Positions 2,086-38,247 of a stretch of 38,823 nt of DNA are shown piece after piece. The stretch's first letter is position 1. Each line of letters opens with the position of its first letter. The notes under the pieces are model-generated. The model was not told the origin of the DNA. It saw only the letters and a program-made list of their open reading frames with translations, and did not search any database. Origin of the DNA: Escherichia phage YZ1; sequence record NC_047927.1; one strand, given 5' to 3'. The position numbers and the translations under genes were made by a program.

Positions 2086-2108
2086 ACTTAACTATCACTA
2101 TAGGACTC
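2086..2108 (+). promoter_or_regulatory. Phage RNAP promoter upstream of the RNA polymerase gene
   Basis: TTAACTATCACTATAGGACTCA; matches the window consensus TAAACTATCACTATAGG with predicted +1 G at 2103. Confidence 0.7.
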
Positions 2109-2177: not shown

Positions 2178-4859
2178 ATGAGCGTCATCTCTATTGACAA
2201 ACACGACTTCTCTGATGTGTCGAACGCCATTGAGCCGTTTAACCTGCTGGCTGACCACTACGGGCAAGACCTTGCAGTCAAACAGCTTCAGCTTGAGCAC
2301 GAGGCATACACTGAAGGCGAGCGACGTTTCATCAAGAACCTTGAGCGCCAGACTGAGCGCGGGGAACTGGCAGACAATCAGGTCGCCAAGCCTTTGATGC
2401 AGACTCTGGTGCCTAAGATTGCGCAAGCAGTCAAGGAGTGGCACGAAGGCCAAGACGGGAAGCTGTCAACCTCTCGTCCTAGCGTAGCGTTCATCATGTT
2501 GAGCACTGAAGAGAAGGCCGTCAAGGACCGCTCTATGCGCATCTCCTGTGAGTCCGCTGCGGTTATCATACTCAAGGTCATACTCTCCAAGCTGGTCAAG
2601 CCTGAAGGGATACCGATTACACCGATGGCCTCCGCGATAGGTCGCACACTTGAGGACGAAATCCGCTTCGGTCGCATCCGTGACAAAGAGAAGGAGCACT
2701 TCAAGAAGGCGATAGCTGAGAACCTGAACAAGCGAGCTGGGGCATCCTACAAGAAAGCCTACATGCAAGCGGTCGAGGCGTCCATGCTGGAGCAAGGCCA
2801 ACTGGAAGATGCATGGGGGACTTGGAGTCCTACAGAGGCTGTCCACGTTGGCATCAAGATGCTCGAGATTGTCATCCAGTCAACACAACTGGTCGAGCTT
2901 AAGCGGTACGGTGCTGGTAATGCAGCGGCTGACGTAGAGATGGTCCACCTGTCAGACTTCTGGGTCAAGAAGATGACACAACGAGGATTCAGCCTTGCGG
3001 GTATCGCTCCAGTCTACCAGCCTTGCGTCGTTCCACCTAAGCCGTGGACTGGTGTCGTAGGTGGTGGGTACTGGGCCAAAGGTCGCAGACCGTTACCAGT
3101 GATTCGCTTAGGGTCTAAGTCTGCGGTAGCACGTTATGAAGACGTATACATGCCTGAAGTCTATGACGCTGTGAATATCATCCAGAATACACCATGGAAA
3201 GTGAACAAGAAGGTATTGGACGTGGTGAACATGGTCGAGAAGCTGAACAACACGCCTATTGACGACATCCCTCAGATGGAACCGCTGAAGCCTGAGGACT
3301 ATGCTGGTGAGACCGAGGAGGAACTCAAGGCATGGAAGAAGACTGCTGCTGGTATCTATCGCCGCGAGAAGGCCAGACAGTCACGCAGATTATCACTGAG
3401 CTTTATCGTTAACCAAGCAAACAAGTTCTCTCAGTTCAAGGCCATCTGGTTCCCGTACAACATGGATTGGCGAGGTCGTGTCTACGCTGTCCCGATGTTC
3501 AACCCTCAGGGTAACGACATGCAGAAGGGTCTCCTGACTCTGGCAGTCGGCAAGCCTATTGGTGCTGACGGTTTCAAATGGCTGAAGGTCCACGGTGCAA
3601 ACTGTGCGGGTGTCGATAAAGTCACCTTCGAGGAGCGCATCAAGTGGGTGGAAGACAACCACGAAAACATCATGGCTGCTGCTAAGGCACCGATGGATAG
3701 TATTGAGTGGTGGGGCAAGTTAGACTCTCCGTTCTGTTTCCTCGCGTTCTGCTTCGAGTATGCTGGCGTAATGCACCACGGCCTGTCTTACTCCTGCTCG
3801 CTGCCGATAGCGTTCGATGGGTCCTGCTCTGGTATTCAGCACTTCAGTGCGATGCTTCGTGACCACATCGGTGGACATGCAGTAAACCTGACGCCATCCG
3901 GTAAGGTACAAGACATCTACCGCATTGTGTCTGACCGCATTGAGGAGGAGCTTAAAGTCCTGCTGATTAATGGTACTGACAACGAGATGGTCACTCACGA
4001 GGATAAGAAAACTGGTGAGATTACCGAACGTATCAAGCTGGGGACACGAGAGCTGGCCCGTCAGTGGCTGCAATTCGGTATGTCTCGCTCGGTCACTAAG
4101 CGCTCGGTCATGACTCTGGCCTACGGGTCGAAAGAGTATGGGTTCGCCGACCAAGTGTTCGAAGACACCGTGATGCCAGCGATTGACTCCGGTAAGGGAG
4201 CTATGTTCACTGAACCAAGCCAAGCGTCTCGCTTCATGGCTAAGATGATTTGGGAAGCTGTGAGTGTGACCGTAGTTGCTGCGGTTGACGCGATGAAGTG
4301 GCTTCAAGGTGCTGCCAAGCTGCTGGCTGCTGAAGTGAAGGACAAGAAGACTGGAGAAATCCTGAAGCCTTGCCTTCCGGTACACTGGGTCACACCTGAT
4401 GGTTTCCCGGTCTGGCAGGAATACCGCAAGAAGGATACCACTCGTCTGAACCTGATGTTCTTAGGGTCATTCAATCTTCAGCCTACCGTCAACAGAGGTA
4501 CGAAGAAAGAGCTGGACAAGCACAAGCAGGAGTCAGGCATTAGCCCGAACTTCGTCCACTCACAAGATGGTAGCCACCTCCGCAAGACTGTAGTCCACAC
4601 TCACCGCAAGTATGGCGTGATGTCGTTCGCAGTGATTCACGATAGCTTCGGGACCATCCCGGCTGACGCTGAGTATCTGTTCCGTGGCGTCCGTGAGACG
4701 ATGGTCGAGACCTACCGAGACAACGATGTGCTGCTTGACTTCTACGAGCAGTTTGAATACCAGCTTCACGAGAGCCAGCGCGATAAGTTGCCAGAGCTTC
4801 CGAAGAAAGGTAAACTGAATATCGAAGACATCTTGTCTTCAGATTTTGCATTCGCTTAA
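2178..4859 (+). CDS. Single-subunit DNA-directed RNA polymerase (T7 gene 1 homolog, 893 aa)
   Basis: Full-length colinear similarity to T7 RNAP: N-terminal DFSD...IEPFNLLADHYG, conserved blocks such as VHWVTPDGFPVWQEY and PNFVHSQDGSHLRKTVV, and the C-terminal FAFA. Confidence 0.97.
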   Translation: MSVISIDKHDFSDVSNAIEPFNLLADHYGQDLAVKQLQLEHEAYTEGERRFIKNLERQTERGELADNQVAKPLMQTLVPKIAQAVKEWHEGQDGKLSTSRPSVAFIMLSTEEKAVKDRSMRISCESAAVIILKVILSKLVKPEGIPITPMASAIGRTLEDEIRFGRIRDKEKEHFKKAIAENLNKRAGASYKKAYMQAVEASMLEQGQLEDAWGTWSPTEAVHVGIKMLEIVIQSTQLVELKRYGAGNAAADVEMVHLSDFWVKKMTQRGFSLAGIAPVYQPCVVPPKPWTGVVGGGYWAKGRRPLPVIRLGSKSAVARYEDVYMPEVYDAVNIIQNTPWKVNKKVLDVVNMVEKLNNTPIDDIPQMEPLKPEDYAGETEEELKAWKKTAAGIYRREKARQSRRLSLSFIVNQANKFSQFKAIWFPYNMDWRGRVYAVPMFNPQGNDMQKGLLTLAVGKPIGADGFKWLKVHGANCAGVDKVTFEERIKWVEDNHENIMAAAKAPMDSIEWWGKLDSPFCFLAFCFEYAGVMHHGLSYSCSLPIAFDGSCSGIQHFSAMLRDHIGGHAVNLTPSGKVQDIYRIVSDRIEEELKVLLINGTDNEMVTHEDKKTGEITERIKLGTRELARQWLQFGMSRSVTKRSVMTLAYGSKEYGFADQVFEDTVMPAIDSGKGAMFTEPSQASRFMAKMIWEAVSVTVVAAVDAMKWLQGAAKLLAAEVKDKKTGEILKPCLPVHWVTPDGFPVWQEYRKKDTTRLNLMFLGSFNLQPTVNRGTKKELDKHKQESGISPNFVHSQDGSHLRKTVVHTHRKYGVMSFAVIHDSFGTIPADAEYLFRGVRETMVETYRDNDVLLDFYEQFEYQLHESQRDKLPELPKKGKLNIEDILSSDFAFA

Positions 4860-5163: not shown

Positions 5164-5186
5164 CCTAAACTATCACTATAGGATTA
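5164..5186 (+). promoter_or_regulatory. Phage RNAP promoter (T7 phi1.1-like position)
   Basis: CTAAACTATCACTATAGGATTAG, predicted +1 G at 5181. Confidence 0.75.
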
Positions 5187-5226
5187 GACTCAAGGTCATG
5201 ACCCAAAGTCGTGGCCTTCATGATTA
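5185..5226 (+). promoter_or_regulatory. Conserved hairpin copy 1 (putative RNase III site, T7 R1.1 position)
   Basis: TAGACTCAAGGTCAT-loop-GTGGCCTTCATGATTA; AAGGUCAU pairs with GUGGCCUU including G-U pairs. Same motif recurs at 12045 and 35468. Confidence 0.6.
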
Positions 5227-5446: not shown

Positions 5447-5698
5447 ATGAGCAGACGTTGGGTATTCGATGCGTCCACCAGCCAGTGGTCATCGTTAGGC
5501 CGGACACACCGCGAGATGAGAGAGGCAGGACTTGAGGTCAGAATGGATGTCCTGCCGTGCTCCGGAAAGACTCTGGTCAGAGTAATTGAAGCAGATGGTG
5601 GGAGGCTTCTGGTCTCCAGAGAATTTACCGAAGATGAAATCTTTAGCTGTGAGCAATGGTGCTTACAACAATTGAACGCTTATAGGAGCTGGAAATAA
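5447..5698 (+). CDS. gp1.2-like protein (83 aa; T7 gp1.2 is a dGTPase inhibitor)
   Basis: Position between gene 1.1 and ligase; C-terminal ...YRSWK resembles the T7 gp1.2 C-terminus ...LKDWK. Assignment is mainly by synteny. Confidence 0.5.
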   Translation: MSRRWVFDASTSQWSSLGRTHREMREAGLEVRMDVLPCSGKTLVRVIEADGGRLLVSREFTEDEIFSCEQWCLQQLNAYRSWK

Positions 5699-6780: not shown

Positions 6781-6820
6781 AACCCAGTGGTCTCATGACT
6801 GCTGGGTTTCTTTGCTTTGT
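6781..6820 (+). terminator. Putative intrinsic terminator after the ligase gene (T7 TE position)
   Basis: 7-bp stem AACCCAG/CTGGGTT with a 15-nt loop, followed by TCTTTGCTTTGT. Confidence 0.4.
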
Positions 6821-6854: not shown

Positions 6855-6877
6855 CCTAAGCTATCACTATAGGACAA
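6855..6877 (+). promoter_or_regulatory. Phage RNAP promoter (variant, G at -12)
   Basis: CTAAGCTATCACTATAGGACAAC, predicted +1 G at 6872. Confidence 0.65.
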
Positions 6878-7776: not shown

Positions 7777-7935
7777 ATGAGCCTTGAAGAAAAGAAGTAC
7801 ATCGTGGAGCTTGAGGGTCGCGTTCAGTCCTTCGAGGTTCCGGTGTACGCAAAGTCTCTTGAAGAGGCTACCCTGAAGTCCCAAGAGTATGAGGACGCTG
7901 GTTTTGTGGTCGGTCGGATTCGTCCTGAGACCTAA
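7777..7935 (+). CDS. Gp2-like inhibitor of host RNA polymerase (52 aa)
   Basis: [33 protein letters not shown] aligns with T7 Gp2 [34 protein letters not shown] (from memory), including the conserved Arg in the (V/I)R(V/I)RP motif. SD GGAAGGAG upstream of ATG 7777; the longer track ORF from 7714 lacks an SD. Confidence 0.7.
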
Positions 7936-7953
7936 ACTATCACTGTAGGACAG
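7931..7953 (+). promoter_or_regulatory. Phage RNAP promoter (variant CACTGTAGG; T7 phi2.5 position)
   Basis: CCTAAACTATCACTGTAGGACAG, predicted +1 G at 7948; G instead of A at -3. Confidence 0.55.
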
Positions 7954-9840: not shown

Positions 9841-10056
9841 ATGATTAAACTTATTGAATTTCTTGGTCGTCTGGTGGTGCGTGGTTATCGTCGTGCTGCG
9901 GTACTGGAACGAAAGGTAGAAAAGAAGACTGCTGACAGTGCGGCTGATGCTGCTGCTCTGGCTGACAAGCTGACCATCGCGTCACTGGAAGCTGGCATGA
10001 AGGCACGTCAAGCTGACACCAAAGCTGACCAGTTGGCTCAGTTCTTCAAAGCCTAA
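9841..10056 (+). CDS. Hypothetical protein (71 aa, Ala-rich, predicted coiled coil)
   Basis: ORF with AAGGAGAA SD 8 nt upstream. Confidence 0.5.
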   Translation: MIKLIEFLGRLVVRGYRRAAVLERKVEKKTADSAADAAALADKLTIASLEAGMKARQADTKADQLAQFFKA

Positions 10057-10075
10057 ACTATCACCTTAGGGATGG
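10053..10075 (+). promoter_or_regulatory. Phage RNAP promoter-like sequence (degenerate, CACCTTAGG) upstream of the primase-helicase gene
   Basis: GCCTAAACTATCACCTTAGGGATG; two core mismatches at -4/-3, so probably weak. Confidence 0.4.
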
Positions 10076-10121
10076 GACCATTAGTCCTGTCCCTTTGTTC
10101 GCATTTGTGACTAAGGAGTGA

Positions 10122-14276: not shown

Positions 14277-14664
14277 CGGAAAGTCCCAGCACTTCACTGG
14301 TGCTGCTAGTGAGTTATATGTAAGCTATAGACTGACAGCCAAAGGGCATCAAGTATTCCTCCCAGCATTCACGCAGTCAAAGGCAGACTTGGTGGTCGAT
14401 ATAGACGGGACCCTTACGAGGGTTCAGGTCAAGACCGGAACGAAGCTGAAGAACTGTAATAGCATACAGGTAAGACTGGGAGGATGCGGTAAGCCAACTT
14501 ACAGTCCTGGAGACATAGACCTACTAGCGGTTGTCTATCAGGATTTACTCTGGCTTATACCGTTCACTGAAGAGGTTAGAGTCAAGACCTCTATGTGTAT
14601 AAACTTAACGTCTGACAAGAAGTACGGACAATTTAAACAGGAGAAGACTAATGGCTATTACTAA
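14248..14664 (+). CDS. Putative nuclease-like protein, PD-(D/E)xK / Hjc-like motif arrangement (about 138 aa, proposed TTG start)
   Basis: Open frame continues past the polymerase stop with no ATG; TTG at 14248 has GGAGGG 5 nt upstream. Motifs ASELYV ... KADLVVDIDG ... VQVKTG resemble the E...D...(E/Q)xK layout. Contains AGA/AGG Arg codons, unlike the core genes. Confidence 0.35.
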   Translation: MDQRGKNAIDGKSQHFTGAASELYVSYRLTAKGHQVFLPAFTQSKADLVVDIDGTLTRVQVKTGTKLKNCNSIQVRLGGCGKPTYSPGDIDLLAVVYQDLLWLIPFTEEVRVKTSMCINLTSDKKYGQFKQEKTNGYY

Positions 14665-16575: not shown

Positions 16576-16598
16576 ACTAAACTATCACTATAGGGACT
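16576..16598 (+). promoter_or_regulatory. Phage RNAP promoter (T7 phi6.5 position)
   Basis: CTAAACTATCACTATAGGGACTT, predicted +1 G at 16593. Confidence 0.75.
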
Positions 16599-16659
16599 TT
16601 AGGACCTAAGATATGACTATAAGATAGACTTTAGTCTTAACTTAAAGAGGAGATTCAAG

Positions 16660-16932
16660 ATGGCGATTAATGCTATTGAAAACGTTGTTAAGCAGTTACA
16701 GGAAGAAAGACTTGATGTCCCGAACATCTCACAGTCTGCTATCCAGTTCCTGCACGTATTGTTCAACGCAAGCTACGCTGAGAAGATGGGAGCTATCAGT
16801 CTCCTCAAGCAGCAAGGTTACAGCGATGCGTTCATTGCCGGGTTCATCAAGGGTCTCCAGTATTGTTCTGACACTCTCGACTCTGCGATTGCTATGCGTC
16901 GTGAGCTGAAAGATACCGTTCAGTTTGATTAA
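16660..16932 (+). CDS. gp6.5-position hypothetical protein (90 aa)
   Basis: ORF with AAGAGGAG SD downstream of a phage promoter. Confidence 0.6.
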   Translation: MAINAIENVVKQLQEERLDVPNISQSAIQFLHVLFNASYAEKMGAISLLKQQGYSDAFIAGFIKGLQYCSDTLDSAIAMRRELKDTVQFD

Positions 16933-16946
16933 CTGTAGGAGGGACT

Positions 16947-17171
16947 ATGTGTTTCAGTCCGAAGATTAGCACTCCGAAGCCTTCGGTCCAAGCACCTGAA
17001 CCAGCACCTCTGAGTGAGGAAGTTGCGTCAGTTGACATCGGGGCTGAATCAGATGTGGACACCAACGAGGCCAAAGGTATCAAAGACCTCAAGGTCAAGA
17101 AGGAGTCTGCACCTAAAGATAAATCGTCAGTGAGTCGCGCTATGCGAGCCTCTGGCGTCAACATGGGGTAA
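16947..17171 (+). CDS. gp6.7 homolog, small virion protein (74 aa)
   Basis: N-terminus MCFSPKI and EPAPL motif as in T7 gp6.7 (from memory). Confidence 0.7.
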   Translation: MCFSPKISTPKPSVQAPEPAPLSEEVASVDIGAESDVDTNEAKGIKDLKVKKESAPKDKSSVSRAMRASGVNMG

Positions 17172-17175
17172 GACA

Positions 17176-17580
17176 ATGCTACCATATCTCAACTCACGCG
17201 AAGGTCGCCACATGTGCGCTTGTCGCCTCTGGGAAGACGGGCAGTCTAACTTCAAGTCATTCGAGGACTTCAAGGCTCATACTTACCGTATGGCTGACGA
17301 GTTCGACGGTGAAGAGTACACAATCTACGATGTCTCAGGTCAACCAGTAGCGTATCTCTACATGCTGGCTACCGCATCTTGGCACCGACCGACTCCCGGT
17401 CTTGACCTTTCAATCGTCGCTATTCGTCGTGACTCGCAGTCCTCCCGCAAGGTTCTTGAGACTGTCAGGCACATCATAGACGAAGAGTGCAAGCGTTGGG
17501 GTCTTGGCTGGTATTCTCGTGTCAAGCATGTTTCTGGGTCGGTAGACATCGTAACAACTAAGGAGATTAATCGTGGGTAA
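17176..17580 (+). CDS. gp7-position protein (134 aa)
   Basis: Size and position match T7 gene 7 (133 aa); no motif verified. Confidence 0.55.
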   Translation: MLPYLNSREGRHMCACRLWEDGQSNFKSFEDFKAHTYRMADEFDGEEYTIYDVSGQPVAYLYMLATASWHRPTPGLDLSIVAIRRDSQSSRKVLETVRHIIDEECKRWGLGWYSRVKHVSGSVDIVTTKEINRG

Positions 17581-17824
17581 ATCAATCAGTAAGGCTTTCA
17601 AGAAAGTAGTAAAAGGTGCGTTAGGGACAGTTGGTCTTGGAGCTAACGATGCACCTAAGGTTGTTGAGGCTCAGACCCCAGCAGCAGCACCAGTGGAAGT
17701 CCCGAACGACAAAGTTGAAGATGTGGATACCGAAGTGACTGCATCTGACGAGAAGAAAGTGAAGCGTTCCGGTAAGCGTAGCCTTCAGGTCTCTCGCACC
17801 TCTGGTGGCGGTATTTCTATTTAA
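17573..17824 (+). CDS. gp7.3 homolog, tail-associated virion protein (83 aa)
   Basis: MGK...KK..K basic N-terminus and C-terminal SRTSGGGISI match T7 gp7.3 (SVARSSGGGINI, from memory). Confidence 0.75.
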   Translation: MGKSISKAFKKVVKGALGTVGLGANDAPKVVEAQTPAAAPVEVPNDKVEDVDTEVTASDEKKVKRSGKRSLQVSRTSGGGISI

Positions 17825-17835
17825 GGAGGTGACGA

Positions 17836-19404
17836 ATGGCTGAACGTGAAGGGTTCGCTGCTGAAGGAGCCAAAGCGGTCTATGACCGACTGAAGAACGG
17901 TAGACAGCCATATGAGACACGCGCTCAGAACTGTGCTGCTGTCACTATCCCGTCACTGTTTCCTAAGGAGTCAGACAACTCGTCTACTGAGTACACAACT
18001 CCGTGGCAAGCTGTAGGTGCTCGTTGTTTGAACAACTTGGCTGCAAAGCTGATGTTGGCGTTATTCCCTCAGTCACCATGGATGAGACTGACAGTCTCCG
18101 AATATGAGGCCAAGACCTTGAGTCAGGACTCAGAGGCAGCTGCTCGTGTTGACGAAGGGCTGGCTATGGTCGAGCGTGTGTTGATGGCCTACATGGAGAC
18201 CAACAGTTTCCGTGTGCCATTGTTCGAAGCTCTGAAGCAGCTTATCGTCTCCGGTAACTGTCTGCTTTACATTCCAGAGCCTGAACAGGGTACTTACAGT
18301 CCTATGCGAATGTACCGCTTAGTGTCCTACGTTGTTCAACGTGATGCTTTCGGTAACATCTTGCAGATTGTGACTCTCGACAAGGTAGCGTTTAGTGCTC
18401 TACCGGAAGACGTGAAGTCTCAACTCAATGCAGACGACTATGAGCCTGACACAGAGCTGGAAGTGTATACGCACATCTACCGTCAGGACGACGAGTATCT
18501 GCGCTACGAGGAAGTGGAAGGAATTGAGGTAGCAGGGACAGAGGGTTCTTACCCACTGACTGCATGTCCGTACATCCCGGTACGAATGGTTCGACTGGAT
18601 GGTGAAGACTATGGTCGTTCTTACTGCGAGGAGTATCTGGGAGACCTGAACTCGCTGGAGACGATTACAGAAGCTATCACCAAAATGGCTAAGGTAGCCT
18701 CCAAGGTGGTGGGCCTCGTTAACCCGAACGGTATCACGCAACCTCGTCGTCTGAACAAGGCGGCTACAGGTGAGTTCGTGGCTGGTCGCGTTGAGGACAT
18801 CAACTTCCTGCAACTGACGAAAGGTCAGGACTTTACGATTGCCAAGTCGGTGGCTGATGCTATCGAGCAACGTTTAGGCTGGGCCTTCCTTCTTAATAGT
18901 GCTGTTCAGCGTAATGCCGAGCGAGTCACTGCTGAAGAGATTCGTTATGTTGCTGGCGAACTGGAGGCGACCCTAGGTGGCGTGTACTCAGTACAGTCAC
19001 AAGAGCTTCAGTTACCTATAGTCCGTGTGCTGATGAACCAGCTTCAGTCTGCTGGCATGATTCCTGACCTTCCGAAAGAAGCGGTAGAGCCTACGGTCTC
19101 CACTGGTCTGGAAGCTCTGGGTCGTGGTCAGGACTTGGAGAAGCTAACTCAGGCAGTCAACATGATGACAGGACTACAGCCTCTGCAACAGGACCCAGAC
19201 ATTAACTTGCCTACCCTTAAGCTGCGACTGCTGAATGCCTTAGGCATTGATACTGCTGGCCTTCTGCTGACTCAGGACGAGAAGATGCAACGTATTGCTG
19301 AACAATCCGCTCAAGGAGCTGTGGTCAACGGTGCGTCTGCCGCTGGTGCTAACATGGGTGCCGCTGTAGGTCAGGGAGCTGGTGAGGACATGGCTCAAGC
19401 CTAA
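17836..19404 (+). CDS. Head-to-tail connector (portal) protein (T7 gene 8 homolog, 522 aa)
   Basis: Long colinear identity with T7 gp8: PYETRAQNCA, PWQAVGAR, YRLVSYVVQRDAFGN, RMVRLDGEDYGRSY, ERVTAEEIRYVA. Confidence 0.96.
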   Translation: MAEREGFAAEGAKAVYDRLKNGRQPYETRAQNCAAVTIPSLFPKESDNSSTEYTTPWQAVGARCLNNLAAKLMLALFPQSPWMRLTVSEYEAKTLSQDSEAAARVDEGLAMVERVLMAYMETNSFRVPLFEALKQLIVSGNCLLYIPEPEQGTYSPMRMYRLVSYVVQRDAFGNILQIVTLDKVAFSALPEDVKSQLNADDYEPDTELEVYTHIYRQDDEYLRYEEVEGIEVAGTEGSYPLTACPYIPVRMVRLDGEDYGRSYCEEYLGDLNSLETITEAITKMAKVASKVVGLVNPNGITQPRRLNKAATGEFVAGRVEDINFLQLTKGQDFTIAKSVADAIEQRLGWAFLLNSAVQRNAERVTAEEIRYVAGELEATLGGVYSVQSQELQLPIVRVLMNQLQSAGMIPDLPKEAVEPTVSTGLEALGRGQDLEKLTQAVNMMTGLQPLQQDPDINLPTLKLRLLNALGIDTAGLLLTQDEKMQRIAEQSAQGAVVNGASAAGANMGAAVGQGAGEDMAQA

Positions 19405-19422
19405 ACTATCACTATAGGAACA
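19400..19422 (+). promoter_or_regulatory. Phage RNAP promoter (T7 phi9 position)
   Basis: CCTAAACTATCACTATAGGAACA, predicted +1 G at 19417. Confidence 0.75.
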
Positions 19423-19512
19423 ACACAGCTTGGGTGAGAGAAAGCACAACCAGCCGTAACTGGCGGGCAGGTTGCTGTGTTACCTATTAACGACTTAAAG
19501 GAGAATGACTCA

Positions 19513-20397
19513 ATGTCTCAATCAGTTTATGCCGAGTTCGGCGTTAGCTCTAATGCAATCACTGGTTCCGTTGAGGACCTGAACGAACACCATAAGTCTA
19601 TGCTTGAACAGGACGTAGCTGTTCGTGATGGCGATGACGCTATTACATTCAAGCAACTGGAAGCCGAAAACGAAGAGGCGACCGAAGAAGACGAGAACGT
19701 CGAAGAGACTGAAGGTGAAGAAGACCACGAGTCCGATGACGAAGAGTCTGAGACCGATGGTGAGCAGCCTGAGTTCATCGAACTAGGTGATGCACCGAAA
19801 GAGCTGACTGAAAGTGTCACCGCTCTGGATGAAAACGAAGCTGCATTTGACGACATGGTGTCTTCTGCTGTAGAAGCTGGTAAGGTCACTGCTGATGAAA
19901 TTACCGCTATCAAGGCTGAATACGCCAAGGACGGTAAGCTGTCTGACGCATCCTACGCTAAGTTGCAGGAAGCAGGTTACACCAAGCGTTTCGTAGATTC
20001 GTTTGTCCGTGGTCAGGAAGCTCTTGCTGAACAGTATGCTGCTGGTGTGGTTCGCTACGCTGGTGGTGCTGAACAGTTTAATCGCATCCTGTCACACCTT
20101 GAGTCCAACGACCCGTCAACTCGTGAAGCACTTGAAGCTGCTATCGTTCGTAAGGACATTGCGACTACCAAAGCTCTGCTGAATCTGGCTGGCAAGACTC
20201 TGGGTAAAGCTGTAGGTGTTAAACCTCAGCGAACCGTCACCACTCAGGCTAAACCTGTGGTCGCACCTAAGGCTCCTCAGACCGAAGCATTCAGCTCCAA
20301 GGCTGACATGATTAAGGCTATGAGTGACCCGCGATACCTGCGTGATGCTAAGTACACGATGGAAGTTCGCGCTAAGGTAGCTGCCTCAAGCCTGTAG
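19513..20397 (+). CDS. Capsid assembly (scaffolding) protein (T7 gene 9 homolog, 294 aa from ATG 19513)
   Basis: VYAEFGV, VAVRDGDDAI, acidic central region, KAMSDPRY near the C-terminus as in T7 gp9; SD AAAGGAG 8 nt upstream of 19513 (the track ORF begins at a GTG at 19477). Confidence 0.9.
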   Translation: MSQSVYAEFGVSSNAITGSVEDLNEHHKSMLEQDVAVRDGDDAITFKQLEAENEEATEEDENVEETEGEEDHESDDEESETDGEQPEFIELGDAPKELTESVTALDENEAAFDDMVSSAVEAGKVTADEITAIKAEYAKDGKLSDASYAKLQEAGYTKRFVDSFVRGQEALAEQYAAGVVRYAGGAEQFNRILSHLESNDPSTREALEAAIVRKDIATTKALLNLAGKTLGKAVGVKPQRTVTTQAKPVVAPKAPQTEAFSSKADMIKAMSDPRYLRDAKYTMEVRAKVAASSL

Positions 20398-20398
20398 G

Positions 20399-20421
20399 AC
20401 TAAACTATCACTATAGGGAGA
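20399..20421 (+). promoter_or_regulatory. Phage RNAP promoter upstream of the capsid gene (T7 phi10 position, best consensus match)
   Basis: ACTAAACTATCACTATAGGGAGACC, predicted +1 G at 20416. Confidence 0.85.
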
Positions 20422-20523
20422 CCAAGAGACAGACTCAAGGTTCCACTATTACTTCAGTCCATACGGATTGGGCGTACAGCAAGTAATAAACTTTATCTTT
20501 CAATTGAATAGGAGAATTATCAT

Positions 20524-21567
20524 ATGGCAAACGTTCCGGGTCAGAAAATTGGTACAGACCAAGGTAAAGGCAAATCTGGTTCCGACGCTCTGGCGTTGTT
20601 CCTGAAGGTCTTTGCTGGTGAAGTCCTGACCGCATTCACTCGCCGCTCTGTAACTGCTGACAAGCATATTGTCCGTACCATTCAGAACGGTAAGTCTGCT
20701 CAGTTCCCGGTCATGGGTCGCACCTCTGGTGTGTATCTGGCTCCGGGTGAGCGACTGTCCGATAAGCGTAAAGGTATTAAACATACCGAGAAAGTGATTA
20801 CCATTGATGGTCTGCTGACTGCCGATGTGATGATTTTCGACATTGAAGACGCAATGAACCACTATGACGTGGCTGGCGAGTATTCCAACCAGTTGGGTGA
20901 AGCTCTTGCTATCGCTGCTGATGGTGCGGTGCTGGCTGAAATGGCTATCCTGTGTAACCTACCGGCTGCATCCAACGAGAATATTGCTGGTCTGGGCACT
21001 GCGTCCGTACTTGAAGTAGGCAAGAAAGCTGACCTCAACACCCCGGCTAAACTGGGCGAAGCAATCATCGGTCAACTGACCATTGCTCGTGCGAAGCTGA
21101 CCTCCAACTACGTTCCTGCTGGCGACCGTTACTTCTACACCACGCCGGACAACTACTCTGCAATCCTAGCGGCTCTGATGCCGAACGCTGCTAACTATGC
21201 TGCGCTGATTGACCCAGAGACTGGTAACATCCGTAACGTAATGGGCTTCGTGGTTGTTGAAGTTCCACACTTGACTCAGGGTGGTGCTGGTGAAACTCGT
21301 GGTGACGATGGTATCACTATTGCGACTGGTCAGAAGCACGCCTTCCCAGCTACTGCTGCTGATGATGTTAAAGTTGCTCTGGACAACGTTGTGGGCCTGT
21401 TCTCTCACCGTTCTGCTGTTGGTACTGTTAAGCTGCGCGACTTGGCGCTGGAACGTGACCGTGACGTCGATGCTCAGGGCGACCTGATTGTTGGTAAATA
21501 CGCTATGGGTCACGGTGGTCTGCGTCCTGAAGCAGCTGGCGCACTGGTTTTCAGCCCAGCGGCGTAA
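20524..21567 (+). CDS. Major capsid protein (T7 gene 10A homolog, 347 aa)
   Basis: LALFLKVF, GEVLTAF, GKSAQFPV, DKRKGIKHTEKVITIDGLLTADV, MPNAANYAALIDPE, HRSAVGTVKLRDLALER, KYAMGHGGLRPEAAGA colinear with T7 gp10A. Confidence 0.97.
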   Translation: MANVPGQKIGTDQGKGKSGSDALALFLKVFAGEVLTAFTRRSVTADKHIVRTIQNGKSAQFPVMGRTSGVYLAPGERLSDKRKGIKHTEKVITIDGLLTADVMIFDIEDAMNHYDVAGEYSNQLGEALAIAADGAVLAEMAILCNLPAASNENIAGLGTASVLEVGKKADLNTPAKLGEAIIGQLTIARAKLTSNYVPAGDRYFYTTPDNYSAILAALMPNAANYAALIDPETGNIRNVMGFVVVEVPHLTQGGAGETRGDDGITIATGQKHAFPATAADDVKVALDNVVGLFSHRSAVGTVKLRDLALERDRDVDAQGDLIVGKYAMGHGGLRPEAAGALVFSPAA

Positions 21568-21698
21568 GCACCTTTAGCCAACCTAACGTCGCTACAGTAG
21601 CGGCTGCACCTGAAGAGGAGACTCTAACTCCCCAACAGAAAGCTGCGCGTACTCGTGCTGCGAACAGGGCCGCTAAACTGGCTGAGTCCAACAACTAA
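20524..21698 (+). CDS. Minor capsid protein 10B, predicted product of a -1 ribosomal frameshift at GGTTTTC (21546-21552)
   Basis: The slip heptamer G GUU UUC lies 4 codons before the 10A stop; the -1 frame stays open for 50 codons to TAA at 21696-21698. Confidence 0.55.
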
Positions 21699-21701
21699 TT
21701 G

Positions 21702-21742
21702 AAACCCCTTGGGTGCCTTCGGGTGCTTGAGGGGTTTTTTTT
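21702..21742 (+). terminator. T-phi-like terminator for phage RNAP (also intrinsic-terminator-like)
   Basis: AACCCCTTGGGTGCC-TTCG-GGTGCTTGAGGGG followed by eight T residues; resembles T7 T-phi. Confidence 0.85.
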
Positions 21743-21790
21743 CGGAGGATTAATGAAGATACGTATACGCTACCTTAAAGGAGATTAGTA

Positions 21791-22357
21791 ATGGCTCAAT
21801 ACATTCCACTGAATGCTAACGATGACTTAGACGCCATCAACGATATGTTAGCTGCTATCGGTGAACCAGCAGTCCTACAGCTTGACGAGGGGAACGCTGA
21901 CGTCTCGAACGCTCAACGTATACTGCATCGTGTCAATCGTCAGGTCCAAGCTAAAGGCTGGAACTTTAACATCAACGAAGCTGCTGTCCTGACACCTGAT
22001 GTCCAAGACAATAGGATTCGATTCTTGCCGTCATACCTTCGTGTAATGACCGCTGGGGCCACCAGCTACTACAGCAACATGGGTGGATACCTGTACGACC
22101 TGTCCACTCAGTCAACCACTTTCACCGACCCTATCACGGTAGAGCTTGTGGAGATGAAGCCATTCTCCGAGATGCCTGTGGTCTTCAGGGACTACATCGT
22201 CACTAAAGCCAGCCGTGAGTTCAACGCTAAGTTCTTCGGTAGCCCAGAGTCAGAGCTATACCTTCGTGAGCAGGAAGCAGAACTCTATCAGCAGGTTATG
22301 GAGTACGAGATGGACACTGGTCGCTACAACATGATGTCTGACATCGGGAGGGACTAA
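21791..22357 (+). CDS. Tail tubular protein A / gatekeeper (T7 gene 11 homolog, 188 aa)
   Basis: AIGEPAV, NAQRILHRVNRQVQAKGWNFNI, IVTKASREFNAKFFG, EYEMD.G.YNM match T7 gp11. Confidence 0.9.
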   Translation: MAQYIPLNANDDLDAINDMLAAIGEPAVLQLDEGNADVSNAQRILHRVNRQVQAKGWNFNINEAAVLTPDVQDNRIRFLPSYLRVMTAGATSYYSNMGGYLYDLSTQSTTFTDPITVELVEMKPFSEMPVVFRDYIVTKASREFNAKFFGSPESELYLREQEAELYQQVMEYEMDTGRYNMMSDIGRD

Positions 22358-24714
22358 TGCCGCTTATTACGCAAAGCATAAAAAATCTTAAGGGTGGCAT
22401 TAGCCAGCAGCCTGATATACTGAGGTTCTCAGACCAAGGCGAGGCGCAGGTTAACTGCTGGTCATCCGAGAGTGATGGCCTCCAGAAGCGCCCACCTACA
22501 GTCTTCAAGCGACGTCTTAACATCGACGTTGGGAGCAACCCTAAGTTCCACCTGATTAACCGTGACGAGCATGAGCAGTATTACATCGTGTTCAATGGGT
22601 CAAACATTCAGGTAGTTGACTTGAGTGGAAATCAATACTCAGTGTCAGGTGCGGTAGACTACGTTAAGTCCTCCAGCCCACGAGATGACATCCGTGTCGT
22701 TACCGTGGCAGACTATACGTTCGTCGTTAACCGTAAGGTTGTCGTCAAAGGTGGAAGCGAGAAGTCACACTCTGGTTATAACCGCAAAGCACGAGCTTTA
22801 ATTAACCTGCGTGGTGGACAGTATGGTCGAACCCTTAAGGTGGGAATCAACGGTGGCGTTAAGGTCTCGCATAAGCTACCAGCAGGTAATGATGCAGAGA
22901 ATGACCCACCTAAGGTGGACGCTCAAGCCATTGGTGCAGCTCTGAGAGACCTTCTTGTTACTGCCTATCCTTCTTTCACGTTTGACCTTGGGTCTGGCTT
23001 CCTGCTAATCACAGCTCCTTCAGGGACCGATATTAACTCAGTGGAGACGGAGGATGGCTACGCTAACCAGCTAATAAGCCCAGTCCTAGACACTGTGCAG
23101 ACAATCTCTAAACTACCTCTTGCAGCTCCTAATGGGTATATCATTAAGATTCAAGGTGAGACAAACAGTAGCGCCGATGAATACTACGTGATGTATGACT
23201 CCAACACTAAGACGTGGAAGGAGACAGTGGAGCCGGGAGTTGTCACTGGGTTCGATAACACCACAATGCCACACGCTCTGGTACGACAATCTGATGGCTC
23301 CTTTGAGTTCAAGACTCTGGATTGGTCCAAGCGCGGTTCTGGTAACGATGACACAAACCCTATGCCTAGCTTCGTGGATGCTGTGATTAATGATGTGTTC
23401 TTCTACAGGAACAGGCTTGGGTTCTTGTCGGGTGAGAACGTAATCATGAGCCGTTCAGCCAGCTACTTTTCGTTCTTCCCTAAGAGTGTGGCGACACTGA
23501 GCGATGATGACCCTATTGATGTAGCTGTAAGTCACCCTCGAATCTCAATCCTTAAGTATGCCGTTCCGTTTAGTGAGCAGTTACTACTTTGGTCGGATGA
23601 GGTTCAGTTCGTGATGACAAGCTCTGGGGTACTTACCTCGAAGTCTATCCAGCTTGATGTAGGCTCAGAGTTTGCCTTAGGTGATAATGCCAGACCGTTC
23701 GCTGTAGGACGCTCAGTCTTCTTCTCAGCTCCTCGTGGGTCATTCACCAGCATTAAGCGATACTTCGCTGTAGCTGATGTGTCTGATGTGAAGGATGCTG
23801 ATGATACAACCGGTCACGTATTGTCCTACATCCCTAACGGGGTGTTTGATATTCAAGGTACAGGGACTGAGAACTACATCTGCGTCAACTCTACAGGTGC
23901 ATACAACCGTATCTACATCTACAAGTTCTTGTTTAAGGACGGCGTACAGCTTCAAGCCTCTTGGTCACACTGGGAGTTCCCTAAAGATGATAAGATTCTG
24001 GCGTCTGCTTCTATTGGCTCTACCATGTTCATCGTTCGTCAGCACCAAGGAGGGGTAGACATTGAGCACCTTAAGTTCATCAAGGAGGCAACTGACTTCC
24101 CGTCAGAGCCGTATAGACTCCACATTGACTCCAAGGTGTCTATGGTAATTCCAATTGGCTCATATAATGCTGACACCTATAAGACTACGGTTGACATTGG
24201 TGCTGCTTATGGTGGCAACGCTCCGTCTCCCGGTCGGTACTATCTGATTGACAGTCAGGGTGCTTATGTGGACATTGGGGACTTGACCAGTATCTCTACT
24301 GTGATTACCCTCAACGGCGATTGGTCAGGACGCACAGTGTTCATCGGACGGTCCTATCTTATGTCCTACAAGTTCTCACGGTTCCTGATTAAGATTGAAG
24401 ATGATAGTGGAACTCAGTCTGAAGACACTGGTCGCCTACAGCTTCGTCGGGCTTGGGTCAACTACAAGGACACTGGCGCTCTGAGACTCATTGTCAGAAA
24501 CGGTGAGCGGGAGTTCGTGAACACCTTTAATGGGTACACCCTTGGTCAGCAAACCATCGGTACTACAAACATTGGTGACGGGCAGTATCGCTTCGCTATG
24601 AATGGTAACGCATTAACCACTAGTCTAACCTTAGAGTCCGATTATCCTACCCCAGTGTCAATCGTTGGGTGTGGCTGGGAGGCGTCATACGCTAAGAAAG
24701 CTCGTTCCGTCTAA
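22357..24714 (+). CDS. Tail tubular protein B (T7 gene 12 homolog, 785 aa)
   Basis: N-terminal ITQSIKNLKGGISQQPDILR, HLINRDEHEQYY, MPHALVR, FFYRNRLGFLSGEN, LKYAVPFSE, RLQLRRAWVNY and C-terminal IVGCGWE; colinear with T7 gp12. Confidence 0.95.
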   Translation: MPLITQSIKNLKGGISQQPDILRFSDQGEAQVNCWSSESDGLQKRPPTVFKRRLNIDVGSNPKFHLINRDEHEQYYIVFNGSNIQVVDLSGNQYSVSGAVDYVKSSSPRDDIRVVTVADYTFVVNRKVVVKGGSEKSHSGYNRKARALINLRGGQYGRTLKVGINGGVKVSHKLPAGNDAENDPPKVDAQAIGAALRDLLVTAYPSFTFDLGSGFLLITAPSGTDINSVETEDGYANQLISPVLDTVQTISKLPLAAPNGYIIKIQGETNSSADEYYVMYDSNTKTWKETVEPGVVTGFDNTTMPHALVRQSDGSFEFKTLDWSKRGSGNDDTNPMPSFVDAVINDVFFYRNRLGFLSGENVIMSRSASYFSFFPKSVATLSDDDPIDVAVSHPRISILKYAVPFSEQLLLWSDEVQFVMTSSGVLTSKSIQLDVGSEFALGDNARPFAVGRSVFFSAPRGSFTSIKRYFAVADVSDVKDADDTTGHVLSYIPNGVFDIQGTGTENYICVNSTGAYNRIYIYKFLFKDGVQLQASWSHWEFPKDDKILASASIGSTMFIVRQHQGGVDIEHLKFIKEATDFPSEPYRLHIDSKVSMVIPIGSYNADTYKTTVDIGAAYGGNAPSPGRYYLIDSQGAYVDIGDLTSISTVITLNGDWSGRTVFIGRSYLMSYKFSRFLIKIEDDSGTQSEDTGRLQLRRAWVNYKDTGALRLIVRNGEREFVNTFNGYTLGQQTIGTTNIGDGQYRFAMNGNALTTSLTLESDYPTPVSIVGCGWEASYAKKARSV

Positions 24715-24721
24715 CTTATTG

Positions 24722-24771
24722 AAGGGCCTATAGATTTACCTTAACTATCACTATAGGGACTATAGGCCCTT
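24722..24771 (+). promoter_or_regulatory. Perfect 12-bp inverted repeat (AAGGGCCTATAG / CTATAGGCCCTT) enclosing the next phage promoter
   Basis: Arms at 24722-24733 and 24760-24771 are exact reverse complements with a 26-nt loop that contains the promoter core; possible RNase III site or terminator analogous to T7 R13. Confidence 0.5.
24739..24761 (+). promoter_or_regulatory. Phage RNAP promoter (T7 phi13 position)
   Basis: CTTAACTATCACTATAGGGACTA, predicted +1 G at 24756. Confidence 0.75.
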
Positions 24772-24790
24772 AAGGTTATAAGGAGACTTT

Positions 24791-25261
24791 ATGTATATTC
24801 GCAAAGCTACGGAACCAGATGTCCACTACTTTCTGGGGCATCTTTCAGCAGATGATGTTAATGAGTGCAAAGCAAACTATGGGTCAACCGTTGGTCTCTC
24901 TGAAAGACTGCTTAAGCACCTATCTCCGTCATCTGTGGTTTTAACGAACGGTGTAGGCGAAGTGTTTTCCTATGGTGGGAACCAAGGGGATAACGTGTGG
25001 TTCTTGACTTCCGGTCTTGTCTACAAGCTGAGACCTAAAGAGAAGAGAGAGTTCACAAAGCGTATCTCTGAGTACAGGGACTTAATGTTAGACCAATACG
25101 GGACCATCTGGAACTACGTGTGGTCAGGCAATAAGTCTCACATTAAATTCTTGAAGCTGCTTGGGGCTAAGTTCCATGATGATTGGACTATCAGCCCGGT
25201 AACTGGTGAGCGTTTTCAACTATTCACTATCTCTAAGGAGGACGTATGTGTGAACCCGTAA
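24791..25261 (+). CDS. Protein in the gene 13 slot (156 aa); homology to T7 internal virion protein A not verified
   Basis: ORF after a phage promoter with TAAGGAG SD; overlaps the gp14 start; no motif I can confirm. Confidence 0.55.
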   Translation: MYIRKATEPDVHYFLGHLSADDVNECKANYGSTVGLSERLLKHLSPSSVVLTNGVGEVFSYGGNQGDNVWFLTSGLVYKLRPKEKREFTKRISEYRDLMLDQYGTIWNYVWSGNKSHIKFLKLLGAKFHDDWTISPVTGERFQLFTISKEDVCVNP

Positions 25262-25833
25262 GTATCGGCATGGGTATCATGGCTGTAGCCGGGGCCACTA
25301 TGTCCGCATCCCAGCAGGCCAAGGCCGAAGGTGCAGCAATTGACGCTCAGAATCGACAGGCTCAGGAAATGGTTAAGCAGATGAACTACTCTGACGCCAA
25401 CCTGAAGATGCAGGAGCGAGACCTGAAGGAGCAGCAGATGGCTGAACTGACAGAGACCACGCTCAACGGTATACGAAATCATGGTATGGTCCGAGCTGCG
25501 GTGGCTGAGTCAGGTCTGGAAGGTAACTCTATGGACAGGATTGAACGTCAGGTCGAAGGAGATACAGTCAAGGAGCGAGCAGGGATTACCGAAAGTTACA
25601 ACCGCGACTATGCGGCTATCTTCGGGAACCGTATCGCCAACATTGAGAACACAAAGTCTGCTATCCGTGGTCAAGGTAAAATTATCAAGACCAGCCCACT
25701 GGCTCATGCACTTAATGTTGTTACCGTAGGGATGCAAGGTTACGCCGCTGGTAAGTCAATCTCTGGAGCGTCAAGCTCTGGTGGTGCTGCACCAATTAGT
25801 GCTGCTAAAGGCACACCTACAGGTCATAGCTAA
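25246..25833 (+). CDS. Internal virion protein B (T7 gene 14 homolog, 195 aa)
   Basis: N-terminal MC, central GLEGNSMDRI and NYRRDY-like ESYNRDYAAIF, C-terminal AAKGT.TG; same length as T7 gp14. Confidence 0.88.
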   Translation: MCEPVSIGMGIMAVAGATMSASQQAKAEGAAIDAQNRQAQEMVKQMNYSDANLKMQERDLKEQQMAELTETTLNGIRNHGMVRAAVAESGLEGNSMDRIERQVEGDTVKERAGITESYNRDYAAIFGNRIANIENTKSAIRGQGKIIKTSPLAHALNVVTVGMQGYAAGKSISGASSSGGAAPISAAKGTPTGHS

Positions 25834-25844
25834 GAGGAGGACTA

Positions 25845-28127: not shown

Positions 28128-28131
28128 CATA

Positions 28132-31100: not shown

Positions 31101-32019
31101 TAGCCTGACTGGTAGTAAGCGTAAGTTCGATGACCGCTGGCTTAAGACCGCTGGTATCTCTGATGAGCAGTGGAAGGGCATTAAGTCCCTCATCCGAGAG
31201 TCAGTGACTCGTGGTCCAGACGGGAAGTACACCATCAAGGATAAGAAGGCGTTCAGTCAGGACCCAAGGGCTATGGACCTGTGGCGTATGGGTGACATCA
31301 TCGCTGATGAAACGTTACTACGACCTCATAAGCTGTCTAACATGGATGCCAAGGCTTATGGCCCTCTAGCTAAGACTGTCCTTCAGTTTAAGAACTTCGT
31401 CATCAAGTCCATCAATGGGCGAACCATGCGTACCTTCTATAACGCCACGAAGAACAACCGAGCGATGGATGCTGCTCTATCTACCGTGATGTCTATGGGT
31501 CTGGCTGGAATGTACTACATGGCGCAGGCGCACATCAAGGCTTACGCTATGCAGGATGGTCGCGACCGAGAGTATCTGAAGCAAGCCCTTAACCCGACAA
31601 TGATTGGCTATGCGGCTCTGTCCCGTAGCTCCCACTTGGGTGGACCACTTGGGGTCGCCAACATTCTGGGCGGCATCGCTGGGTATGAGGACACTAAGCT
31701 GCTCCGTTCGTCTATCCTGCCACGTTCACCAACAGAGAAACCTGAACGCGCCATCTCGTATGGTGCAGCTACAAGTGACCCTGTGATGAATGTAGTCGGC
31801 AACTTCCTTGAGCAGGTTCCGGCTTTCGGATATGCCGCTAACGTGGGGGCTTCGGCTTACAACTTGGCTGGATACCTGAAGGCTGACACCCGTGTGAATG
31901 AGCGAGACTACATGACCGGGATGTATAACACTTTCCGCGAACTGGTTCCGAACGACCCCATTACCCAGAAGCTGATTCTGGGAACATTTGAGGAACAAGG
32001 CATCCACATCAAGGACTAA
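28132..32019 (+). CDS. Internal virion protein D (T7 gene 16 homolog, 1295 aa) with a divergent N-terminal domain
   Basis: Strong colinear similarity to T7 gp16 from about residue 200 (TWFGF, VTGGSP.NL, GAGVDPL.YVP, RLEARETARN, VRSPTGMQSGASGK, GTYVPHVY, AYGISH, NGLVG.ENNSFLEARNLFDSD, ILTGRARR, RPHK, C-terminal NDP.TQ). The N-terminal 130 aa carry an NNPGNIR motif rather than the T7 transglycosylase signature. Confidence 0.95.
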   Translation: MATRGIRNNNPGNIRVSKDQWEGMTGDDGSFVTFDSPESGVRALGKNLLSYGRQGYDSIEKIINRWAPPNENDTKAYIDSVVAATGIPATQSLDLSDPDTLSSLAQAISFHETGSRYDPEVYQKGVARALNGITPKTPPVSANVFDALTEGLKAKPKVALGENLPTAAGLNIEGQAPEAPNESFGEMFYKSTGETMQEREDRSTWFGFGSATEAEVKNSMVGVAIRAGQTEDSLDVIGDVFNPTRWNNHKWSREELDQIRNAGVLPQYYGVITGGSPQNLTELINLALENQKLDQEKAKAGTGAQLAAGVIGAGVDPLTYVPIAGQVGKGGKLVNKMFTVAAQSGALAGASEIARTSVAGGDAHVAEAILGGALFGGGMTAIADGLGRALGRNTNEFAGPATRLEARETARNVDGQDLSRLPIQEGEQTFSHQGVKFADVPNEPGSVRLEDGSILIGENPLNPKTRQVFDEVIEPERAAAGVNLGGLTEIGLKLLRSENPEIRGVAADLVRSPTGMQSGASGKIGTTASDVFERLRAVDHRFYNDIDDAVTEALKDPYFQTAFWRDSGAFRQDIYQRVSMAIEDGSGNLKAELTPGELKVYDLLKNQFDAKREMMENPAMFGRPDAQSIFPGSRFKGTYVPHVYSKQMKELYIKELGSPESLQEAIKKSWLTSYASRPEVKKRVDEALLEADPTLTPEGLAAAVDKYANDKAYGISHTEQFERSSVMEENINGLVGLENNSFLEARNLFDSDMSIVLPNGQTFSVNNLREWDMDKIVPAYNRRVNGDIAIMAGTGKTTKDMKDLVETMMNKAGDDGKLKGEVSTLRDTLKILTGRARRDGADDAALSTVMRTMTDLSFFAKNAYMGVQNLTEIGGMLARGNVRAMLHGVPIFRDLAFRNKKVGASEIKDLHNVIFGKELDDSIRPSKQDVIDRLRSYSDLGRGTATALGTAKYYTGELAVRSPFTKVLNGTTNYLLDAGRQGFLSDIVEHSLTGSKRKFDDRWLKTAGISDEQWKGIKSLIRESVTRGPDGKYTIKDKKAFSQDPRAMDLWRMGDIIADETLLRPHKLSNMDAKAYGPLAKTVLQFKNFVIKSINGRTMRTFYNATKNNRAMDAALSTVMSMGLAGMYYMAQAHIKAYAMQDGRDREYLKQALNPTMIGYAALSRSSHLGGPLGVANILGGIAGYEDTKLLRSSILPRSPTEKPERAISYGAATSDPVMNVVGNFLEQVPAFGYAANVGASAYNLAGYLKADTRVNERDYMTGMYNTFRELVPNDPITQKLILGTFEEQGIHIKD

Positions 32020-32037
32020 ACTATCACTATAGGAACC
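32015..32037 (+). promoter_or_regulatory. Phage RNAP promoter (T7 phi17 position)
   Basis: GACTAAACTATCACTATAGGAACC, predicted +1 G at 32032. Confidence 0.75.
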
Positions 32038-35535: not shown

Positions 35536-35937
35536 ATGGAAGGCGCATATATAAGTGGAGGATACTGGAAGGTTACTCGCAATGGTAAGGTGCATGGAGT
35601 TCACAGATTACTATGGGAGGAAGCCAACGGTCCTATCCCAGAGGGTTACGTCATAGACCACATTGACAGGAACCCTATGAATAACGAGCTGTCAAACCTT
35701 AGGTGTATACCCAAAGGAGCAAACAAGGCTAACACAGAATCATCTAGGGAACTACCTAAGGGTGTATACTCTAGGCTTGCTAAACGTCAAGGTGTGACTG
35801 TATATTATGGTGACATTAGGATTGGTGGTAAGAAAGAAACTCACGCTCCTACTAAGAATCTGATGGAAGTCGTGGAATGGGCTAAGTCAACTCACAGCAG
35901 AATGCTGAAGGAGACATATGGTATTTCAAATGTTTAA
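35536..35937 (+). CDS. HNH endonuclease (133 aa), likely a free-standing homing endonuclease
   Basis: HNH signature in HRLLWEEANGPIPEGYVIDHIDRNPMNNELSNLRCIP; codon usage rich in AGG/AGA and lower GC than the flanking core genes; no counterpart at this position in T7. Confidence 0.85.
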   Translation: MEGAYISGGYWKVTRNGKVHGVHRLLWEEANGPIPEGYVIDHIDRNPMNNELSNLRCIPKGANKANTESSRELPKGVYSRLAKRQGVTVYYGDIRIGGKKETHAPTKNLMEVVEWAKSTHSRMLKETYGISNV

Positions 35938-38224: not shown

Positions 38225-38247
38225 ACTTAACTATCACTATAGGAAGA
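38225..38247 (+). promoter_or_regulatory. Phage RNAP promoter near the right end (T7 phiOR position)
   Basis: ACTTAACTATCACTATAGGAAGAC, predicted +1 G at 38242. Confidence 0.7.

Follow-up and report, generated by a model that had tools for sequence, protein, structure and literature searches.

The original genome paper on phage K1F is reportedly that of Scholl and Merril in 2005 (J Bacteriol 187:8499). The K1F-type promoter set is already known and is an ordinary feature, and both its application and the relevant experiments are in the literature. The K1F-type pair of polymerase and promoter is now an established orthogonal tool in genetic circuits, expression and targeted mutagenesis. Temme et al. 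(2012) grouped phage polymerases by their specificity loop and predicted a promoter for each group (PMC3458549). The K1F loop (T7 Q744-I761) was grafted into T7 polymerase, positions -12 to -7 of the T7 promoter were swapped for the K1F consensus, and 17-fold induction was obtained (PMC3458549). The resulting T7(K1F)/PK1F pair was reported to be orthogonal to the T7, T3 and N4 pairs, the chimeras were described as "highly orthogonal", and two pigment pathways were run independently from T7 and K1F promoters (PMC3458549). This orthogonality was measured with a T7 scaffold and with a chimeric promoter that had T7 bases outside -12 to -7, not with the native pair. The K1F loop was reused in split polymerases by Segall-Shapiro et al. 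in 2014 (PMC4299498). A 2025 NAR paper places K1F among nine natural clusters of T7-like polymerase/promoter pairs, and its Table 2 lists the T7(K1F) variant as "632S, 754S, 756N, 761V" with the cognate "ACTAT" (PMC11880802). The same paper gives the 2012 set a smallest cognate/non-cognate ratio of 8, a moderate value that goes with relatively high activity for non-cognate pairs (PMC11880802).

Expression in Halomonas, Pseudomonas and E. coli has been driven by the native K1F polymerase and PK1F, which with deaminase fusions have also served as a targeted mutagenesis tool (PMC12218169). The fusions gave a ~46,000-fold effect on target compared with 6- to 27-fold on the MmP1 and VP4 promoters, and the native pair worked in E. 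coli and Halomonas, where crosstalk to MmP1 and VP4 was low (PMC12218169). Takatsuki et al. (2025) purified the Ro45lw polymerase, transcribed in vitro from ACTTAACTATCACTATAGGGACT, located the +1 at the G by deep sequencing and shortened the promoter to the minimal ACTTAACTATCACTATAGGGA (PMC12272871). The Ro45lw screening paper mentions a variable background, perhaps from cross-reactivity of T7 polymerase with some of the test promoters. In a 2026 genome note on another Kayfunavirus, the promoter repeat is CTWAACTATCACTATAGG (PMC13298934).

Judged by its sequence, the phage analyzed here is a member of Kayfunavirus, a K1F-like coliphage. We call the whole stretch of DNA analyzed, 38,823 nt in length, the window. 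Both halves of the window show ~93-96% nucleotide identity to many Escherichia Kayfunavirus phages, K1F included. At the DNA level the window is ~94% identical to Kayfunavirus genomes. Matches to the K1F proteins are arranged along it in the order of the T7 genes, and most have 90-100% identity, apart from accessory genes and the tail spike. The polymerase and its specificity loop are located as follows.

2178..4859, + strand: gene 1, single-subunit RNA polymerase of 893 aa (Pfam RNA_pol, 5.6e-105, and RPOL_N)
4422..4517, + strand: codons of the specificity loop, window residues 749-780, aligned with T7 739-770

The gene 1 polymerase is 99.3% identical to that of phage pO2, 97.8% to K1F gp1, 94.0% to the Ro45lw polymerase (sequence from GenBank MK301532) and ~64% to the T7 and T3 enzymes. 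Polymerases with at least 90% identity to it are found in more than 200 phage records. In the alignment, the catalytic residues D537, K631, Y639 and D812 (T7 numbering) are conserved. The loop residues R756, N758, S764, N766, Q768 and V771 correspond to T7 R746, N748, Q754S, R756N, Q758 and I761V, so that R746, N748 and Q758 are unchanged. Over the stretch aligned with T7 744-761, the enzyme has the same residues as K1F and differs from T7 exactly at Q754S, R756N and I761V, which match the published T7(K1F) substitutions 754S, 756N and 761V. Compared with K1F gp1, there are 20 amino-acid differences, none of them within the grafted segment. The N-terminal AT-rich recognition loop is unlike that of T7 and is two residues longer.

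When the window was searched on both strands with TAAACTATCACTATAGG, allowing up to 3 mismatches, 11 matches were found, each with 0-2 mismatches. The chance expectation for this pattern is 0.07 matches. Among 100 dinucleotide-preserving shuffles none reached 11, and no shuffle gave more than 1. All 11 copies lie on the + strand and share (C)T(A/T)A(A/G)CTATCAC(T/C)(A/G/T)TAGG within a conserved element of ~23 bp. The individual sites are listed below.

2086..2108, + strand: promoter, +1 G at 2103, ACTTAACTATCACTATAGGACTC, 33.7 bits, 75 nt 5' of the start of the RNA polymerase gene
5164..5186, + strand: promoter, +1 G at 5181, 5' of the gp1.15/1.2/ligase block
6855..6877, + strand: phi1.6-type promoter, +1 G at 6872, G at -12, beginning TAAGCTATCAC
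7931..7953, + strand: phi2.5-type promoter, +1 G at 7948, A-3G, CACTGTAGG
10052..10074, + strand: promoter, +1 G at 10069, T-4C and A-3T, CACCTTAGG, 5' of the primase/helicase gene
16576..16598, + strand: phi6.5-type promoter, +1 G at 16593, perfect core, "phi6.5" in the Ro45lw record
19400..19422, + strand: phi9-type promoter, +1 G at 19417, perfect core, 42.2 bits
20399..20421, + strand: phi10-type promoter, +1 G at 20416, ACTAAACTATCACTATAGGGAGA from -17 to +6
24739..24761, + strand: phi13-type promoter, +1 G at 24756, CCTTAACTATCACTATAGGGACT, 5' of gene 13
32015..32037, + strand: phi17-type promoter, +1 G at 32032, 5' of the tail spike gene, "phi17" in Ro45lw
38225..38247, + strand: phiOR-type promoter, +1 G at 38242, near the right end

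A weight matrix was built from positions -20 to +8 of the 11 copies and used to scan both strands of the window. The 11 promoters scored 32-42 bits, the runner-up on the + strand scored 14.0 and the top minus-strand site only 4.2. Because of this gap (at least 32 against 14 bits), the list of 11 is complete and stands well apart from background; the scan of both strands of the window revealed no missed or weaker copies. The runner-up at 16602-16629 is a degenerate promoter-like sequence, GGACCTAAGATATGACTATAAGATAGAC, with its +1 at 16622, 29 nt 3' of the 16593 promoter. Possibly it arose as a duplicate of a promoter and then decayed.

These 11 repeats are almost certainly promoters of the phage's own T7-type RNA polymerase, the gene 1 product, and belong to the K1F/Kayfunavirus class; no observation here speaks against this. 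The original prediction, which had described eleven promoters of the phage's own polymerase, is thereby upheld. Ten of its +1 coordinates agree with our alignment; the fifth copy starts at 10069 and not at 10070. Its second point was that positions -12 to -8 read ACTAT, in place of CGACT in T7 and ACCCT in T3. This holds for 10 of the 11 copies, and the GCTAT of the 6872 copy had been overlooked. The core changes that it had described at 7948 (A-3G) and in the fifth copy (T-4C, A-3T) are present.

The core TCACTATAGG (-8 to +2) is exact in 9 of 11 copies, and the other two deviate by one or two bases at -4 and -3. At -14, T occurs in three copies, and at +3, G occurs in four and A in seven. 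The invariant block has C-16 as its first base and G+2 as its last. Beyond what had been predicted, C-16 and T-15 are invariant too, so the upstream AT-rich recognition region is also unlike that of T7. A perfect core from -13 to +2 is found in all five copies at 16593 to 32032, which precede gene 6.5 and the virion genes, and the substituted copies are in the early and middle region.

Every promoter lies in an intergenic gap or over the final codons of the preceding gene and points into the next gene block. The 2103 promoter is intergenic, between the stop of a gp0.38 homologue (2080) and the gene 1 ATG (2178), and its K1F counterpart is at 2491. The 5181 promoter, with its K1F counterpart at 5569, is placed between the gp1.1 stop (5089) and the gp1.15 start (5264). 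Downstream of the ligase stop (6771) and a hairpin at 6781-6808, the 6872 promoter precedes gp1.6 (6902); it is named "phi1.6" in the Ro45lw record, and its -12 G is kept in K1F, pO2, Ro45lw and ESh23. The 7948 promoter overlaps the 3' end of gene 2 (stop 7935) before gp2.5 (7994), and its A-3G variant is also found in K1F, pO2 and Ro45lw. The 10069 promoter, with 32.4 bits the lowest of the 11, overlaps the gp3.7 stop (10056) before gp4 (10125), and its T-4C/A-3T variant is conserved in K1F and pO2.

The late copies are arranged in the same manner. The 16593 promoter is found between the gp6 stop (16449) and gp6.5 (16660), and the 19417 promoter overlaps the stop of the portal gene (19404) before the scaffold gene. 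The 20416 promoter occupies the gap that separates the scaffold stop (20397) from the major capsid gene (20524); it is identical in K1F, pO2, Ro45lw and ESh23 and equals T7 from -8 to +6. From -16 to +6 the 24756 promoter is the same as the Ro45lw in vitro template ACTTAACTATCACTATAGGGACT. The 32032 promoter overlaps the gp16 stop (32019) before gp17 (32085), and the 38242 promoter is 3' of the terminase stop (38130) and 5' of gp19.4 (38427).

The same pattern was then compared among relatives. K1F (NC_007456) has 11 matches in the same order and with the same variant at each site: TTAAC at sites 1, 9 and 11, TAAGC at site 3, CTGTAGG at site 4 and CACCTTAGG at site 5. Phage pO2 also has 11 matches, and Ro45lw and ESh23 have 12 each. 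At orthologous sites in K1F, pO2 and Ro45lw, ungapped identity to the window is 99% from -16 to +2, compared with 68-85% in the flanks. This difference indicates purifying selection on the promoter element itself. The promoters here share with the K1F/Kayfunavirus set the consensus CT(A/T)AACTATCACTATAGG, the number (11 as in K1F), the specificity loop and the gene neighbourhoods. The differences, none of substance, are in a few flanking bases such as -17 in the primase copy and +5/+6 in the tail-spike copy. The core, the ACTAT, the K1F-type loop, and the synteny and co-orientation with genes are all found here as in that class.

The Ro45lw GenBank record (MK301532) annotates these sites as promoters. 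Neither K1F GenBank record carries promoter annotation, so the comparison with K1F rests on the motif search here and on later papers. The twelfth promoter, TTAACTATCACTGTAGG, is 5' of the DNA polymerase gene, with its +1 at 12462 in Ro45lw and at 27023 in ESh23; the motif search found none before the DNA polymerase gene in the window, K1F or pO2. For ESh23 the promoter matches only were used, and its polymerase was left out. In the ESh23 record (ON528733, "UNVERIFIED"), annotated features and promoter matches lie on opposite strands, and the "RNA polymerase" coordinates translate to a non-polymerase (~20% identity). The annotation is apparently mirrored with respect to the sequence.

The sites are built like the T7 promoter, TAATACGACTCACTATAGGGAGA, and share its core from -8 to +2, extended to +6 in the capsid-gene copy. 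Promoter positions relative to genes 1.6, 2.5, 6.5, 9, 10, 13, 17 and the right end are also the same, as is the pattern of perfect late copies and variant early copies. However, eight of the nine bases from -17 to -9 are changed. Neither the CGACT at -12 to -8 nor the TAATA at -17 to -13 that marks the T7 type is found; -12 to -8 reads ACTAT. In comparison to T7, this phage has 11 sites, one of which is directly 5' of the polymerase gene.

The T3 promoter, AATTAACCCTCACTAAAGGGAGA, also has A at -12 and C at -11, and the T3 positions phi2.5, 3.8, 6.5, 9, 10, 13 and OR match most promoters here. In contrast, -10/-9 is TA here and CC in T3, -2 is T here and A in T3, and -16 and -14 differ. The T3 polymerase has D at T7 position 748, whereas the polymerase here has N. 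The ACCCT at -12 to -8, the A-2 and the D748 polymerase of the T3 type are thus all absent. When promoters of T7, SP6 and K11 were searched over -17 to +2, no site in the window was found at 5 or fewer mismatches. For the T3 promoter over the same positions, only two window sites had 4 or fewer mismatches, and both are K1F-type sites. A scan for host-type promoters gave no more sites in the window than in shuffled sequence.

By analogy with T7 biology, host RNA polymerase would transcribe the left end, from which the phage polymerase is made. The phage polymerase would then bind each ~23-bp element, with the specificity loop reading -12 to -7 in the major groove and the N-terminal loop reading the upstream AT-rich part. 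The TATA segment would melt and RNA would start at the +1 G. Judging from published near-identical enzymes, this phage's polymerase is expected to start at the predicted +1 G. All transcription would proceed rightward, first across the replication genes and later across the virion genes. The change from CGACT in T7 to ACTAT is accompanied by R756N, Q754S and I761V in the loop (T7 numbering). T7 R756 contacts the base pair at -9, and -9 is among the positions that differ between T7 and the promoters here. The T7 specificity loop contacts -12 to -7 through R746, N748, R756 and Q758 (PMC3458549, PMC11880802). That the specificity loop reads -12 to -8, as originally proposed, agrees with the sequence and with the published pairing of the K1F loop with ACTAT.

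T7 promoters are split into class II and class III, and the pattern of perfect late and variant early copies here resembles this split. Since the substitutions are kept across the genus, the single substitutions in the early and middle copies suggest tuned, weaker promoters like those of T7 class II. The 2103 promoter is conserved in K1F, pO2, Ro45lw and ESh23, and T3 has no phage promoter at that position. As this promoter is 75 nt 5' of the polymerase start codon, the polymerase could boost its own synthesis. One might go further and read the layout as regulation that is undescribed in the genus, with positive feedback from 2103 (T7 and T3 are without a promoter there) and the variants at 6872, 7948 and 10069 as selected strengths. 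We regard this as a tentative reading that is rather doubtful; if true, it would leave the promoter classification unchanged.

The promoters could be genuine and still be read by T7 or T3 polymerase, or the polymerase here could read theirs, in a way that spoils independent use. We consider this unlikely. The sites equal T7 from -8 to +2 (the capsid-gene copy even to +6); they share AC at -12/-11 with T3, and two of them differ from the T3 promoter at no more than 4 positions. The ratio of only 8 and the relatively high non-cognate activity of the 2012 set point in the same direction (PMC11880802), as does the possible cross-reactivity of T7 polymerase mentioned in the Ro45lw screening paper. 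On the other hand, the chimeric polymerases of Temme et al. were reported as highly orthogonal, and pathways under T7 and K1F promoters ran independently (PMC3458549). The native K1F enzyme showed ~46,000-fold against 6- to 27-fold on non-cognate promoters, a comparison made with MmP1 and VP4 and not with T7 (PMC12218169). The native promoter is also unlike T7 at -17 to -14, a region not used in the chimeric test. The orthogonality of the native pair is predicted here from published work on near-identical enzymes.

The native K1F-type pair described here and T7(K1F)/PK1F have in common the loop substitutions 754S, 756N and 761V and the ACTAT at -12 to -8. They differ in that T7(K1F) has a T7 scaffold and T7 bases at the remaining promoter positions. 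At -16 to -13 the native element reads CT(A/T)A where the T7(K1F) promoter reads AATA, and the native enzyme has another upstream-recognition loop with two extra residues. Because the differences at -17 to -14 and in the N-terminal loop fall outside the loop-graft test, the native pair may discriminate better than the T7 chimera. The possible orthogonality raised by the original prediction is in line with the published orthogonality of T7(K1F) to T7 and T3 (PMC3458549), later rated as moderate with a ratio of 8 (PMC11880802). Its suggestion of an expression tool had been anticipated, as the native K1F polymerase and PK1F are already used in this way (PMC12218169). In vitro transcription and 5'-end mapping have likewise been published for the 94%-identical Ro45lw polymerase (PMC12272871). 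The interpretation is therefore correct but not new, and PK1F is the prior identity of these promoters. The window adds one natural K1F-type variant and a clean promoter map, and little beyond correct annotation.

It is highly improbable that the repeats are mainly RNase III sites, replication or packaging signals or recombination hot spots sharing a T7-like core: the 24756 copy lies in the loop of a perfect 12-bp hairpin, stable hairpins occur at or just past the +1 of the 10069 and 5181 copies, and T3 has RNase III sites that overlap phi6.5 and phi13 as well as a replication origin next to a promoter, but hairpins are found at some copies only (with z -0.1, the fold around 16593 lacks significance), conservation covers the 18 bases from -16 to +2 and not the hairpin arms, the core TCACTATAGG is the T7 promoter core, and the 94%-identical Ro45lw polymerase initiates on such a sequence in vitro (PMC12272871). 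RNase III hairpins were rejected as the primary role, as they are convincing at 24756 only and those of 5181 and 10069 are downstream. Given the hairpins at some copies and the overlaps in T3, some of the promoters may have two roles.

The structure at 24722-24771 is a perfect 12-bp hairpin (z -3.3) with the 24756 promoter in its loop, and both arms would be present only in read-through transcripts. It resembles the T3 RNase III site R13, which overlaps phi13. At 10069-10095 a hairpin with an 11-bp stem begins at the +1 of the primase-gene promoter, and another at 5192-5220 begins at +12 of the 5181 promoter. These two may be stabilisers of transcript 5' ends or RNase III sites. Two terminator-like structures are also present.

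6781..6818, + strand: early-terminator-like hairpin with a T-rich tail after the ligase gene, -22.2 kcal/mol, z -4.0
21701..21741, + strand: Tphi-like terminator, 17-bp stem and T8 tail, -25.2 kcal/mol, z -4.3

The first has the position of TE in T3. The second lies between the capsid gene and gene 11, the position of Tphi in T3.

No direct terminal repeat was found in the window (1-38823), whereas Ro45lw has terminal repeats of 190 bp. Compared with K1F, the right end stops ~240 bp past gp19.4, so one copy of the terminal repeat appears to be missing or collapsed. At the left, an ORF of 174 aa (778-1302) takes the place of the K1F ocr-like gene 0.3. It has no match to K1F proteins or Pfam and may be a different anti-restriction or host-takeover gene.

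The tail spike gene (32085-35003, 972 aa) matches the K1F endosialidase over the first ~220 residues only, at 61%. Pfam identifies a T7 tail N-terminal domain, Tail_spike_N and a C-terminal Peptidase_S74 chaperone domain. This tail spike probably has a receptor specificity other than that of K1F for the K1 capsule. Unlike in K1F, the DNA polymerase gene is uninterrupted. An ORF for a PD-(D/E)XK endonuclease (14038-14664) overlaps the end of the DNA polymerase gene, and an HNH_3 endonuclease ORF (35536-35937) is located between genes 18 and 18.5. Both are likely mobile nuclease genes.
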